Shown here one piece after another: positions 9,111-57,379 of a stretch of 64,000 bases of DNA. The stretch comes from Chiloscyllium plagiosum (Eukaryota). Made by a program: the position numbers and the translations under genes. Each line of letters opens with the position of its first letter. Position 1 is the first letter of the stretch. The DNA lies in the NCBI RefSeq assembly GCF_004010195.1, contig NC_057752.1, positions 8,625,616-8,689,615 on the forward strand, in the 5' to 3' direction. The notes under the pieces were generated by a model. That model worked only from the letters and a program-made list of their open reading frames with translations. It made no database searches and was not told the origin of the DNA.

Positions 9111-9342
9111 TGCAGTGATTTTAACAAGGGCAGCCAGGTGGACCTCGTAGAATGAGTTCCCTGATTGGACCAGATTAACAGCCCCAATCGGGGAGCCCTG
9201 GCTGACAGATATAACAGAGTGATAGAGGTTCTGTTCACTCTAAGATCTGGCTCTGAGGGATTTGGATCAGTGTCAAGGACTCTCCATGTGTACATAAAGG
9301 GTGACTTGGTCACGGGCTATTGGCCTCTGTGGAGTTATTTCA
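9111..9342 (+). mobile_element. Solo LTR of the Gypsy family seen at 54674 and 55166
   Basis: TG...CA ends. Shares CAGCCAGGTGGACCTC, CTGATTGG..CCAATC and GGCTGACAGATA with 55166-55278, and ATAAAGGGTGACT..TGGCCTCTGT..TTATTTC with 57330-57379. Confidence 0.85.
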
Positions 9343-53584: not shown

Positions 53585-54673
53585 GGTGGGCACCAGGGGC
53601 GTTCTGTCCTTGTTACGGTTGGAGGGGTGGGGTCTGAGGGCCGAGGCGTGGGATGTGGCTGAGATGCGTTGGAGGGCATCTTTAACCACGTGGGAAGGGA
53701 AATTGCGGTCTCTAGAGAAGGAGGCCATCTGGTGTGTTCTGTGGTGGAACTGATCCTCCTGGGAGCATATACGGCAGAGGCTGAGGAATTGGGAATACAG
53801 GATGGCATTTTTGCAAGAGGTAGGATGGGAAGAGGTGTAATCCAGGTAGCTGTGGGAGTCGGTGGGTTTGTAAAAAATGTCAGTGTCAAGTCGGTCGTCA
53901 TTAATGGAGATGGAGAGGTCCAGGTATGGTCCCCATCTATGCCTGTCTCTTTGTTGGCTACGTAGAGCAGTTGATCTTCTGTAATTACACCGGCACCACT
54001 CCCCATCTCTTCCTCCGCTACATTGATGACTGCATTGGTTCCACCTCGTGCTCCCGCAAGGAGGTTGAGCGATTCATCAACTTCACCAACACATTCCACC
54101 CTGACCTTAAATTTACCTGGACCATCTCTGACACCTCCCTCCCCTTCCTGGACCTCTCCATCTCCATTGACACTGACATTTGAAATGGTAGCAGGAATGC
54201 CAATCCCAGCCACGTGCCTCCTCTAAGTGCAAAAGATAATTTAATTCAGGGGACGCAGTTTGGTGCCAGAACCATGGAAATGGTGCTGTATAGGTACAAG
54301 GTGAGGGTGACATGAGGTTAGGTCCAGTCACATCCAAAGTTTGGGTCGGTGATACAGTCCTGAACAAATATGTGGATCACCTGAAAGCTATTACCTCTCA
54401 AACAGGGCAGGAGCAAAACATATCTGGATCCTCAGAACAGCTAGAAGGCTTGTCTGAAGCTGCAGATTCTCCCTCTGTCTCGTGTTAAGGAAACCTCAGA
54501 ATCTGAGTCTGATACCATTACCATCAGAATGGGAAGGAGGAAACTTTTCTGGGACACTTTGGACGCAAGGGACGGTCTACAGTCTGGTACATGCTGCCCA
54601 CGTCAGAGGGAACCTGGAGTGAAAACATTGCAGGTGAACCAGGTCTACGTCCCCCGACTTAGGGGGTGAGGGA

Positions 54674-54772
54674 TGTCGTGATTGGATCCTCGTTGAACAC
54701 AAGGTCTTTGATTGGGGTTGTTTGACCTAGGCCAATCAGGACAGCCCAGGCTGACTAATATAAATAGGGGAG
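54674..54772 (+). promoter_or_regulatory. Gypsy 3' LTR U3 half (inverted CCAAT pair and TATA), interrupted just after the TATA motif
   Basis: TG directly after the PPT; TGATTGG..CCAATCAG; TATAAATAGGGGAG at 54759-54772. Confidence 0.8.
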
Positions 54773-57050
54773 GGCGTCCTTTCGAGAAGGAGCACGTGGT
54801 GTCCACCAACACCCTGGAGTTGTTCAGGGAGAGGTGGGTGCCGCAGGGAGTGGAGTGCATCATTTCTCCCTCCAACTCTATTTTGATTTAATCCCTACCC
54901 TCCCCTTCACTGTCCGTCAAGCATTGAAGATACCTCAGAATCTGAAATGGACATGGTGGACGTCACTGCCTTGATGCCTTTGCTGCGTGAAGAGGAGAAT
55001 TAATTTCTTCCGAGACACTCCGGGTGCAAGAGATGAGCTGCTTTTTGTTACACAACGCTCATATCAGAGGCAGAGTCAGGGGAACCTGACCCGCTGCTAA
55101 AAAGCCACAGGAGGGGTTATAAGAAAAAGAACCAGCCTATGTCCTTGGACTCAGAGGGGGAGGGATGTAGTAATCGCAATGAGATCAGCCAGGTGGACCT
55201 CATACATTATGAATACCCTGATTGGGGCTGTTAATCTGGTCCAATCAGATAGCCATGGCTGACAGATAGAAACAGGAGGGTTGCCTGCCCCTCTTCCGCG
55301 GTTACGTTAGGGCCCGGGTTTCCTTGGAGAAGGAGCACGTGGTGTCGACCAACACCCTGGAGTTGTTCAGGGGGAGGTGGGTGCCGCAGGGAGTGGAGTG
55401 CATCATTTCTCCCTCCAATTCTATTTTGATTTAGTCCCTACCCTCCCCTTCACTGTTTTGATCACACAGCATTGCCCTTTGATGTGAAGGGCAGTGTTTG
55501 TCACTGGCCACTCGGGTGTTTTCCTATCTTCCTGGTGGTGGAAATTGAATAAAAAAAAAAAATAAACAGGAGATTCCGCAGGGAGTGGAGTGCATCATTT
55601 CTCCGTCCAATTCTATTTTGATTTAGTCCCTACCCTCCCCTTCACTGTTTTGATCACACAGCACTGTCCCTTGCTGTGAAGGGCAGTGTTTGTCACTGGC
55701 CACCCGGGTGTTTTCCTATCTTCCTGGTGGTGGAAATTGAATAAAGATTCGTGCACTTTGTGTCTCTCACTGTGTCTCCCACCTGCACACACACACACCA
55801 TGGGTGCTGGGGATAAAATAAGCACTACCGCACTTAGGTGGTAGTGTGGGGGTTTAAAAGAAGAAGAAAAAAAAACAAACAGGAGTTGATTTAGTCCAAA
55901 AAAAGAAATATAAATAGGGGAGGGCGTCCTTTCGAGAAGGAGCACGTGGTGTCCACCAACACCCTGGAGTTGTTCAGGGAGAGGTGGGTGCCGCAGGGAG
56001 TGGAGTGCATCATTTCTCCCTCCAACTCTATTTTGATTTAATCCCTACCCTCCCCTTCACTGTCTTGATGACACAGCACTGCCCTTTGATGTGAAGGGCA
56101 GTGCTTGTCACTGGCCACCCGGGTGTTTTCCTATCTTCCTGGTGGTGGAATTTGAATAAAGATTCGTGCACCTTGTGTCTCTCACTGTGTCTCACACCTA
56201 CACACACACACATGGGTGCTGGGGAAAAATAAGCACTACCGCAGTTAGGTAGTAGTGCGGGGGTGATAAAAAAGGGGGATCACCTTGACATGCCCATTTG
56301 CCACCAGATGGTGGGAATCCCCAGTGAAGGGCTCTCGATGTGGGAGTCCTCCCCCTTTCTCTCGGGGATCTGGGGTGGAGGATGTTGCACAGAGCAGTCT
56401 GCTGCAACCGCAGATTGTGGTGGTTCATGGACTGTTTGTTCTGTGGTCCCGTGGACCATGTATATATTGGATGTGGGCATTTGCACTCCTTTATAGTTTT
56501 CTGGAAAACCTTCTCTGCTTTTGGTTGCACTTCAGTCTCATACTCCCAATTTTTGGGCACCCGGGGTGGAAGAAGGTAGGTCAGAGGATCCTCTCGTGGG
56601 TCTGCTCCTCGGCCTGGCCAAACTGGCCATAAACAGGTCCAGGCAGCGGGCCGTGGAGGGGGTCGTTAGGGCCGACTGCCTGCCCCTCTTCCACGGTTAT
56701 GTTCAAGCCCAAGTGTCCCTAGAGAAGGAGTACGCGATGTCTACCAGCACCCTTGAGCTTTTCAGGGAGAGGTGGGCATCGCGTGAAATGTTTTATTTCC
56801 TCCTCCAACTCTATTTTGATTTAATGTCTTCCCTCCCTTTCACTTTTTTGATCACACAGCATTGCTCTTTGATGTGAAGGGCACTGCTTGTCACTAGCCA
56901 CTCTAGTGTTTCCTTTCTTCCTGATGGTGGATTATAAAGAAAGATTTACGCTCCTGTTGTTCTTCACTGTGTCCTACACCTGCGCACACAACATGGGTGT
57001 TGGGGAAAATATAAGCACTACCCTGTTAGGCGGTAGTGTGGGGGTAAAAA
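54773..57050 (+). mobile_element. Cluster of 5'-truncated Tx1-like (L1-group) LINE 3' ends: about 54773-54914, 55279-55562, 55573-55875, 55923-56270 and 56280-57051
   Basis: Repeated ORF2 C-terminus CLPLFRGYVRARVSLEKEHVVSTNTLELFRERWVPQGVECIISPSNSILI*. The longest copy has LGDLGWRMLH..CNRRL, C.FCG..DHVY..C and LLLGLAKLAINRSR. Shared 3' UTR and A-rich tails. Confidence 0.85.
54915..55278 (+). mobile_element. Second Gypsy 3' internal end, PPT and LTR U3 half
   Basis: ACCTCAGAATCTGA is shared with 54493; PPT AGAGGGGGAGGGA at 55153-55165; TGTAGT at 55166; homologous to the solo LTR at 9111-9342. Confidence 0.82.
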
Positions 57051-57052
57051 AC

Positions 57053-57379
57053 ATAAGCAGGAGATTTAGAACCTCCTCAGTTTTGGGCACTGACCCTGTG
57101 CTGGCTGGGCCACCGTCAGTGTGCTCCTGCTGCTAGTCTCTGTTTTGGAGGAGGAAAGTTTCTTTTTCATCCCCCTGCCCCCACCATTTTTCCAGGGAAG
57201 ATATTTGTTCTTTTTGGTTTTCTTTTTGTTTTTTGAAAAAAAATATGTAAAAGGGAATTTAGAATCCCGTCAGTCCAGGAGACTGACTCTGAGCTGGCTG
57301 GTCACAGCTAGTGTACTGTGCACAAGTAAATAAAGGGTGACTCGATGATGGGATACTGGCCTCTGTACAATTATTTCCA
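57053..57379 (+). mobile_element. Downstream (R-U5) halves of the Gypsy LTR, separated by another A-tailed insert (about 57130-57243)
   Basis: ATAAGCAGGAGATTTAGAACC.. and TATGTAAAAGGGAATTTAGAATCC..; AATAAAGGGTGACT..GATACTGGCCTCTGT..TTATTTCCA matches the end of the 9111-9342 LTR. Confidence 0.75.

Follow-up and report, generated by a model that had tools for sequence, protein, structure and literature searches.

The long interspersed nuclear element (LINE) described here was recognized in a 64,000-nucleotide stretch of the Chiloscyllium plagiosum genome (contig NC_057752.1, positions 8,625,616 to 8,689,615 of the forward strand; this whole stretch is hereafter called the window), in which five pieces of one LINE, all on the + strand, lie between the 5' part (54674-54772) and the 3' part of a long terminal repeat (LTR). 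With a probability of roughly 0.8, we consider that this LINE of the Tx1 clade uses target-primed reverse transcription to enter one preferred site of related LTRs, invariably in sense orientation, and that its arrays are the products of serial insertion. The target site would be a TATA-like motif, (A)TAAACAGGAG, located approximately 26-33 nt downstream of a CCAAT box.

Regarding the preference for this site, the 3' untranslated region (UTR) of the LINE piece at 55923-56265 (piece E) was used as a genome query and returned at least 1995 first-look candidates, the 40 best of which were scored; the 39 scored matches other than the window itself showed 93-96% identity to piece E. The best 29 non-self loci among these 40, each with 1.5-kb flanks, were mapped against natural LINE and LTR reference pieces, and all q positions given below refer to one natural LINE copy of 1296 nt. 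At 17 of the 29 loci, an LTR 5' half and/or 3' half borders the LINE or array on the same strand, and the junction falls at the homologous motif. L023, which has the look of a decayed LTR, is one probable further LTR-site locus, and four loci (L005, L011, L014, and L018) are arrays with flanks of unassigned type. Each of the other seven (L006, L008, L009, L012, L015, L019, and L027) is a single off-target insertion bounded by an unrelated A-rich duplication of 11-16 nt (AAAATCGCACAGC, TTAACCACTGAACC, CAAAATCCAATCA, GGAAACAGGCCATTTG, ATATAGAGAAAGCA, AAAGGCTCCCC, and ATAATCCCACCTTT). An earlier account made from the letters of the window alone, hereafter the sequence-only reading, had left room for copies that mostly sit at unrelated TT/AAAA sites; this is not the case (17 of 29 plus one probable at the LTR site versus seven off-target), and its statement that the inserts lie in sense applies to all 17 LTR-site loci. 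A LINE has been treated as target-specific when one sequence type makes up >20% of its flanks, as stated in Kojima (2015; PMC4494074), and the share of LTR flanks in the present survey, 59% (17/29), exceeds this value.

The motif itself was strongly enriched behind the LINE. AAACAGGAG, with no more than one mismatch, was present within 90 nt after 40 of the 72 LINE 3' ends at the 29 other loci, as against 165 of 5000 random windows (3.3%) and 201 of 3600 shuffles (5.6%), and an exact ACAGGAG within the same distance followed 25 of the 72 ends versus 32 of 5000 random windows and 18 of 3600 shuffles. The target LTRs, which have TGT..ACA ends and are directly preceded by polypurine tracts (GGGGGTGAGGGA or AGAGGGGGAGGGA), carry the motif as ATATAAAC 26-33 nt after CCAATC and approximately 85-95 nt before AATAAA. 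At least two diverged LTR groups, continuing downstream as ATTTAGAATCTCCTCAG.. or TGTCAGACATCCTGTTCAC.., were hit at the homologous point, and the 5' junction of the LINE follows ..GCTGAC(A/C)(G)ATA(T/A)AAACAGGAG plus 2-5 nt. A comparison of the two sides gave duplications of 12-15 nt that start in the TATA-like A-run and extend to 3-5 nt beyond CAGGAG. Local variants of the motif were common to the LTR-side copy and the copies between array members, namely, AACAGGTAGT at L010, AAACAGAAATGT at L016, and ACAGCAGGAGT at L004, and the same pattern was found for AAACAGTGGTCT at L021, AAACAGGGAC at L025, and AAAATGACTCG.GG at L020. Since these local variants recur within one array, the motif is target DNA and forms a target-site duplication (TSD) of 12-15 nt. 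TSDs of constant sequence, by which a target-specific LINE is recognized, separate the tandem insertions.

Occupancy of the site was surveyed at 29 loci that were retrieved by the LTR 3' part alone. A script found a same-strand LINE end within 200 nt upstream of 15 of the 29 LTR 3' halves, and inspection by eye classified 17 as occupied, six as empty with a contiguous LTR 5' half, one as having an A-run only between two motif copies, and five as other. Many LTR-motif-LINE and tail-motif-LINE joints were also present in the contigs of an independent DNA run (X15), which indicates that the arrays are no artefact of assembly. Some sites (L042 at ~1460-1530, L054 at ~1420-1530, and L047) contained only an A-run between two motif copies, or a short LTR-downstream piece and an A-run before a second motif; insertions into this site that were 5'-truncated to an extreme degree, or that came from LTR RNA, would have such an appearance.

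In the mechanism that we propose, the first nick would be made in the bottom strand, presumably within the A-run of the motif, and its T-rich end would prime on the A-rich tail. A second nick 12-15 nt downstream, probably 3-5 nt past CAGGAG, would place the motif on both sides, such that the site survives and further insertions may stack as same-strand arrays of 5'-truncated copies. If the second nick falls inside a resident copy, the resident 5' junction would be duplicated, and the product would be a further copy sharing that junction or a stub without a tail, as in piece A of the window; in-register pairing of the top-strand end with the new complementary DNA at the upstream motif copy would lead to a shared junction. 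Source copies sited in LTRs would produce read-through RNAs with the motif, and sometimes 170-200 nt of the LTR, at the 3' end. The insert would part the upstream promoter section of the LTR from its downstream section and offer earlier polyadenylation sites to the RNA of the LTR element, and occupied LTRs may have lost their function. By analogy with Tx1L, we infer that the endonuclease sets the specificity.

Several points weigh against this interpretation. The survey is biased to young, piece E-like copies because only the 40 best-scoring of at least 1995 places were covered. Seven of the 25 classified loci were off-target with ordinary A-rich duplications, and the endonuclease is, therefore, not strictly site-specific. 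The motif is TATA-like, and a role as the working TATA box would be deduced from its position. Inserts that carry the motif within a read-through transcript, as described below, imply that not every motif after a tail is a duplication. The identical 5' junctions within arrays may arise by in-register priming, and no clear case of microhomology was found at these junctions except for AGAGGT in L026. The target LTR element may belong to Gypsy, as hinted at by a sub-cutoff match to the integrase domain rve in decayed open reading frames (ORFs) of L063 (Pfam, E=3.9e-4), ahead of which a FLGLVNYYRKFI-type stretch is present, and by a language-model lead ('transposon 17.6', score 0.92); the upstream flanks of 11 loci yielded one integrase fragment, and a homology search for the pol type of the LTR element gave no match.

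The sequence-only reading had called the LINE Tx1-like, and, judged from protein comparisons, this designation holds at the level of the closest named relative. P0001, a 362-aa C-terminus of ORF2 from another copy in this genome, is closest to Xenopus Tx1 among named proteins, being collinear over 344 aa, at 40% identity and E=7e-57, with the 149-kDa Tx1 protein of Xenopus laevis (residues 951-1291). A Cys/His motif (CxxC..H..C) near the ORF2 C-terminus is conserved, with CLFCGTVESVDHVYIGC aligning with CPFCGKGESVFHAYFTC of Tx1, and the Pfam zf-RVT match scored 24.7 bits, below the cutoff of 27.5. A database relative with 61% identity to P0001, P0002, has YADD and a zf-RVT signal and matched Tx1 with E=1.5e-138 (41% over 99% of the length) versus E=4.5e-6 for the L1-type LORF2, and a related Tx1 protein, P0004, carries PF03372. 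The first 15 residues of ORF2, at the end where an APE-type endonuclease would be expected, are METTIASLNINGTGK (L065 from 2318), and an ORF1-like region with a weak zinc-knuckle match is present. The L031 array consists of 1.3-kb LINE copies, and the L064 copy is truncated approximately 60 nt above the start of the reference.

The inserts at L006, L008, L012, L015, L019, and L020 contain AAACAGGAG with 0-17 nt, or array pieces, before a second A-run. Since these inserts carry the motif past their own tail, their source copies sat in LTR sites and were transcribed through their tails, and pairing of RNA with the target may play a part in homing. Such RNAs are the basis of an alternative in which homing is set mainly by the RNA: AAACAGGAG near the 3' end of read-through transcripts would pair with the nicked bottom strand of an LTR, ..CTCCTGTTT-3', and a generic nick with A/T preference would lead to an insertion far more often where the motif is present. 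The six loci named above represent six of the eight insertions at non-canonical sites, so such RNAs are common, and the sites of off-target insertion have the appearance of generic A-rich nicks. The tail and motif together also form AATAAA, a possible polyadenylation signal just upstream of the LTR downstream part, and co-transcription with the target has been described as capable of strengthening target-specific integration (Kojima, 2015; PMC4494074). On the other hand, the motif in read-through RNAs precedes the second A-tail and is, thus, not at the extreme 3' end, RNAs without the motif have also been inserted (L009 and L027), and pairing alone leaves the fixed second-strand cut unexplained. 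The introduction of Kojima (2015; PMC4494074) and the title of one of its references further assign the choice of target in this clade mainly to the endonuclease. Considering these points, we regard homing set mainly by the RNA as unlikely and favour targeting by the endonuclease, with TPRT at the LTR motif (TPRT standing for the target-primed reverse transcription named above).

Family transcripts were present in a poly(A) single-cell RNA run with the same species label (X19; ~2% of the run), in which 615 reads fell on the LINE part of 54906-55575 with a strong bias to the LINE-sense strand and a depth that rises toward the 3' end. A group of 311 X19 reads extends into the normal 3' UTR and, hence, derives from other copies. 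At the LTR/LINE junction of the window, the depth was no more than 0.7 in the bin and none of the reads listed bridged it; the X19 reads are family-level sense transcripts only. On the LTR 5' half at 55205-55250, which holds an inverted pair (CTGATTGG .. CCAATCAG), the first mates of X19 were opposite in strand to the LINE-part reads, the sequence on either side of the match was dissimilar, and these reads probably derive from LTRs elsewhere in the other orientation.

Long copies of the LINE provide a further connection to the LTR. The C9 long copy ends in an LTR site, with ATATATATAACCGGGGGATT followed by the LTR 3' part. Leaders were surveyed in the C6 copy and in 20 further long copies out of 445 first-look candidates. 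Upstream of ORF1, the long copies have GC-rich tandem units of ~180 nt each, and in the C6 copy and 20/20 of the further copies these units are preceded by ~280 nt, the first ~75 nt of which are R/U5-like. The ~280-nt stretch is always directly preceded by LINE 3'-UTR sequence that ends at ~q1163, and the order in the leader is LINE 3' UTR to ~q1163, TGAGAGTTGGATCAGTGTGAG.. (the ~75 nt that are R/U5-like), GC-rich units, and ORF1 (L068:683-960; L070-L089; L090-L094). This chimeric leader was present in all 21 copies examined (L068 and L070-L089), and its LINE-like part is 5'-truncated at varied points with the motif or array members upstream. The long RNA of the family thus has its beginning further upstream, within an older LINE piece, as fits transcription out of an LTR-embedded array. 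The 5' end of the long RNA was not found in the copies examined, C9 being cut by another repeat and the other leaders being variably truncated. One might go further and regard the LINE as an obligate parasite of the LTR promoter, the long RNA of which is made only from LTR-embedded arrays, which homes partly through the motif in read-through RNA, and which disables most LTR copies and, thus, acts as a genome-wide brake; we offer this as a tentative speculation with the odds against it. With respect to the C9 copy, a ~175-nt repeat with 22,298 first-look candidates in the genome adjoins its 5' side (L067:2575-2750), and a different short repeat interrupts its 3' UTR at L065:6591-6700.

The largest of the arrays has 14 pieces in 3.3 kb (L018), and many arrays contain identical 5' junctions: q1041 four times in L005, q1038 three times in L010, q990 four times in L016, q1009 four times in L026, and q934 four times in L028. 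These exactly shared junctions, together with an exact 149-bp duplicate in pieces A and E of the window and a pair of copies in the array around L024/L062/L063 that agree in both junction and motif variant, are what would be expected if a single insertion had been multiplied by tandem duplication or unequal crossing-over, without repeated targeting. A comparison of 50 copies spanning q1051-1294 argues otherwise, because copies are no closer within arrays than between loci: the distance was 0.0565 within a locus (35 pairs) and 0.0539 between loci (1190 pairs; permutation p~0.72), and the nearest neighbour was in the same locus for one of 33 copies. Same-junction pairs had 0-2 rare alleles in common, which in L017, L018, and L028 lie 2-8 nt from the junction, and very unequal loads of private rare alleles (9 vs 36, 3 vs 30, and 4 vs 14; binomial p 7e-5, 1e-6, and 0.03), and the tails of array members vary in length and pattern. 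The lack of excess likeness, the unequal private loads, and the different tails indicate separate insertions of different ages with an inherited junction. Arrays also contain different truncation points, and their 3' ends differ, including internal A-run ends and mini-fragments; mini-fragments followed by A-runs, like fragment D of the window, occur in L005, L014, L026, and L030. Nor does duplication account for independent loci that agree in the LTR nucleotide at which the LINE entered and in its orientation. A tandem-duplication origin is, thus, very improbable and has already been largely refuted for the arrays tested.

The sequence-only reading had named shared truncation points and diagnostic variants as marks of tandem duplication; many 5' truncation points are shared, whereas diagnostic variants, tails, and age are not. 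Its view that the duplication regenerates the site and that arrays build up by repeated insertion agrees with the within-array distances and the shared motif variants. Within the serial insertion that we favour, identical junctions may be the result of in-register priming, and tail-less stubs may be its out-of-register counterpart: the stubs fused to another piece in L016 (q990-1042|q1128 and q990-1031|q1246) and piece A of the window are interpreted as out-of-register products of insertion into a resident junction.

The arrangement of the window is as follows, with BLAST matches to the reference copy given for the LINE pieces.

54180 to 54673, + strand: 3' end of the internal region of an LTR retrotransposon; its polypurine tract (54660-54673, GGGGGTGAGGGA) adjoins the LTR.
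54674 to 54756, + strand: 5' part of LTR1, U3-like; begins with TGT, includes CCAATCAG, and has ..GGCTGACT as its last letters.
54757 to 54772, + strand: target motif in the local LTR1 variant AATATAAATAGGGGAG; repeated at 55907-55922, with degenerate versions at 56266-56279 and 57243-57258.
54773 to 54905, + strand: LINE piece A, ~q952-1084 and tail-less (match 54772-54913, q952-1092).
54906 to 55562, + strand: retrocopy of a read-through transcript, 98.5% identical to L066 over 54907-55425.
55282 to 55553, + strand: LINE piece B (q918-1189), with an A-run directly after a LINE-internal AATAAA.
55563 to 55575, + strand: motif copy TAAACAGGAGATT, which differs from the LTR1 variant.
55576 to 55876, + strand: LINE piece C with an A-rich tail (match 55576-55851, q1020-1294), 95% to the reference copy.
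55877 to 55906, + strand: motif AAACAGGAG, the 12-nt LINE fragment D (TTGATTTAGTCC), and an A-run; end of a 1001-bp insert.
55907 to 55922, + strand: motif copy in the LTR1 variant, the string being confirmed at this position.
55923 to 56265, + strand: LINE piece E, end of ORF2 and 3' UTR (match 55922-56262, q952-1294), 94%.
56266 to 56279, + strand: degenerate motif copy ATAAAAAAGGGGGA, the string being confirmed at this position.
56280 to 57052, + strand: LINE piece F, older and with a short tail (match 56283-57043, q495-1294), 81% identity.
57053 to 57242, + strand: motif ATAAGCAGGAGATT, a 168-nt 'a-type' piece (57067-57234) like the start of an LTR 3' half, and an A-run.
57243 to 57258, + strand: motif TATGTAAAAGGGAATT, a degenerate LTR1 variant that resembles 54757-54772 and stands in front of the LTR's own 3' part.
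57259 to 57379, + strand: 3' part of LTR1, R/U5-like, TAGAATCCCGTCAG..; AATAAA at ~57329; ends in ..TGTACA.
9111 to 9342, + strand: empty solo LTR of a related family, with ..GCTGACAGATATAACAGAGTGATAGAGG.. at the site.

All seven motif strings of the sequence-only reading were found at exactly their coordinates, and each LINE piece is preceded by the motif, which returns after every A-rich tail, as had been described. A comparison of the whole window with the reference copy agreed that no further copy of the LINE is present in the 64 kb, and a comparison with the LINE and LTR references agreed that the solo LTR at ~9111-9342 is empty. The 5' part of LTR1 (54674-54756) is homologous to the 5' halves of empty LTRs at other loci, and its 3' part is 88% identical to an empty-LTR 3' half (F1_3), with 84-90% matches at many loci. 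The translation of piece F is a decayed ORF2 C-terminus.

The segments 54757-54905 and 55907-56055 are identical (149/149) and flank an insert of 1001 bp (54906-55906) that ends in an A-run. This identity indicates that pieces A and E are one junction that was duplicated, not two insertions, and the 149-bp repeats look like the long TSD of a recent LINE-mediated insertion. The first 657 bp of the insert (54906-55562) comprise 260 nt of the internal 3' end of a second LTR element, its polypurine tract, the 5' half of LTR2 (55166-55265), the motif AGAAACAGGAGGGT, piece B, and A13; within it, 54906-55174 forms a direct repeat of 73-76% with the internal region at 54180-54673. The 54907-55425 segment showed 98.5% identity (8 mismatches/519) to L066, which lies 6.5 Mb away on the same contig, and in which the internal region extends 442 nt further upstream and the LINE reaches its normal end, q1294, inside a complete, thrice-duplicated site. 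The close match to this fuller locus marks 54906-55562 of the window as a 5'-truncated retrocopy. As read from the order of its parts, the retrocopied RNA ran from the LTR element through the LTR upstream part into the LINE and ended at the LINE-internal AATAAA. The retrocopy is direct evidence that LINE inserts can end LTR-element transcripts early, which lends support to the earlier suggestion that inserts could truncate the RNA of the LTR element. The claim that two diverged LTR copies were both hit in this place needs to be divided: LTR1 was hit here, whereas the LTR2-LINE junction arose elsewhere and was brought in, the same junction being present at L066. The variant of the local site, ATATAAATAGGGGAG, is found again at 55907, 56266, and 57243; the motif copies at 55563 and 55877 are not of this local variant and, hence, probably arrived within the insert.

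The sequence-only reading had the downstream half of the LTR resume after 57053-57063; the true LTR 3' part begins at 57259, past the motif at 57243-57258. When the LTR 3' part was used as a query, its parts 1-171 and 172-314 matched other loci separately. Similar 'a-type' pieces were found at L033, L035, L037, L039, L041, L043, L046, L049, L055, L056, and L060, and in at least nine of these 11 a LINE 3' end with its tail and the motif stands immediately before the piece. The unit is ~170-200 nt in length with an LTR-downstream-like start and a T-rich end, and the sequence beyond it differs per locus. An older LINE subfamily is the probable origin of this unit, as its 3' transduction tag, and the 57053-57234 segment was probably brought as a 3' transduction by the old piece F. 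At least three units have, therefore, been inserted at the window site: the 1001-bp insert, piece E, and piece F together with the flank that it transduced.

The junction of LTR2, motif, and LINE at q918, which the window and L066 have in common at 98.5% identity, might also suggest that the LINE piece is part of a composite LTR that was spread by LTR replication or segmental duplication. The 5' truncation of the window copy in the internal region, the A-run at its end, and the 149-bp duplication around it all fit LINE-mediated copying; truncation points, tails, and motif variants differ among loci, and empty LTRs of the same families exist. Besides, if an insert with polyadenylation sites of its own lies between the promoter and R, the RNA of the element should lose its 3' R. 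We find a spreading composite LTR hardly credible. Random insertion at A-rich sites, with copies in dead LTRs merely retained and others purged, accommodates the off-target insertions of generic A-rich appearance, and is the least probable explanation because retention cannot yield nucleotide-precise junctions at one motif, sense orientation at 17/17 loci, and arrays at one point.

LINEs of other groups provide points of comparison. L1 carries flanking DNA along by read-through 3' transduction, and its staggered second nick is variable and leads to long TSDs. In contrast to L1, the flank carried here is the target motif itself, and the long duplications copy the junction of the resident element. 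The R1 and R2 LINEs of ribosomal DNA belong to other clades with other endonucleases, and they insert into a host gene array, not into a retrotransposon. R1 and R2 are similar to the present LINE in their dependence on co-transcription with the target and in read-through 3' ends that can aid precise homing (in part from Kojima, 2015; PMC4494074).

Many families of the Tx1 clade are target-specific according to Kojima (2015; PMC4494074): Tx1L inserts into Tx1D, Keno into U2, Kibi and Koshi into microsatellites, and Tx1-Mar into Mariner-N4_AMi. Families with a preference for LTR retrotransposons, e.g., the crocodilian Tx1-8_Crp and Tx1-4_AMi, are also included there, and the assumption in the sequence-only reading that this class of target had not been described is, thus, incorrect. 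The LTR preference of these two families is given in a single sentence in the text cited, without a site, arrays, or occupancy figures (PMC4494074), whereas the site in the present study is a TATA-like motif between a CCAAT box and the LTR downstream part, in a different vertebrate genome. Tx1-Mar and SINEU-3 in Mariner-N4_AMi similarly use one preferred site of another transposon; tandem copies of Tx1-Mar 'sandwiching a TSD' are attributed to sequential insertion, and transcription from the flanking target is suggested (PMC4494074). The target of Tx1-Mar is a DNA transposon (PMC4494074); here it is an LTR, arrays reach 14 pieces, and repeated insertions often inherit the 5' junction. Xenopus laevis Tx1L in Tx1D, which has the closest named protein with 40-41% identity over the C-terminal part of ORF2, also targets a transposon, and its target is a piggyBac-type non-autonomous DNA transposon (PMC4494074), unlike the LTR found here. 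In a full-text literature search, the coverage of which did not extend to Repbase Reports, no paper was found that describes the TATA-like motif of an LTR as the site of a Tx1 LINE. The general phenomenon of Tx1 LINEs on other transposons, LTR elements included, is already published, and the gain from the present study is detail and a new lineage, not principle. Some new detail is provided by the promoter-proximal site, the high occupancy, the inherited junctions, the retrocopied chimeric transcript, and the chimeric leader.

The present LINE represents a natural case in which one retrotransposon appears to land in the promoter region of another as a safe site, with target data at the nucleotide level, a high share of occupied targets, and host-element transcripts that end inside the invader. 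It offers a short defined DNA target for studying the choice of site by Tx1-type endonucleases or RNAs, and its arrays are a natural record of how the position of second-strand cleavage may shape 5' junctions. It may also serve as a system for asking whether the parasitism of one transposon on another limits the activity of LTR elements.

Concerning the surroundings of the site, 12-27% of the words sampled from window positions 55100-55900 were present in sequencing runs labelled as four other organisms (B-E), and related species, therefore, probably have parts of the LINE or LTR in common with this genome. An open frame, ..RYIDDCIGSTSCSREEVERFINFTNTFHPDLKFTWTISDTSLPFLDLSISI, at 54000-54180 of the window looks like a reverse transcriptase fragment of another retroelement that adjoins the remnant of the LTR element, and its motifs appear similar to those of Penelope-like reverse transcriptases.

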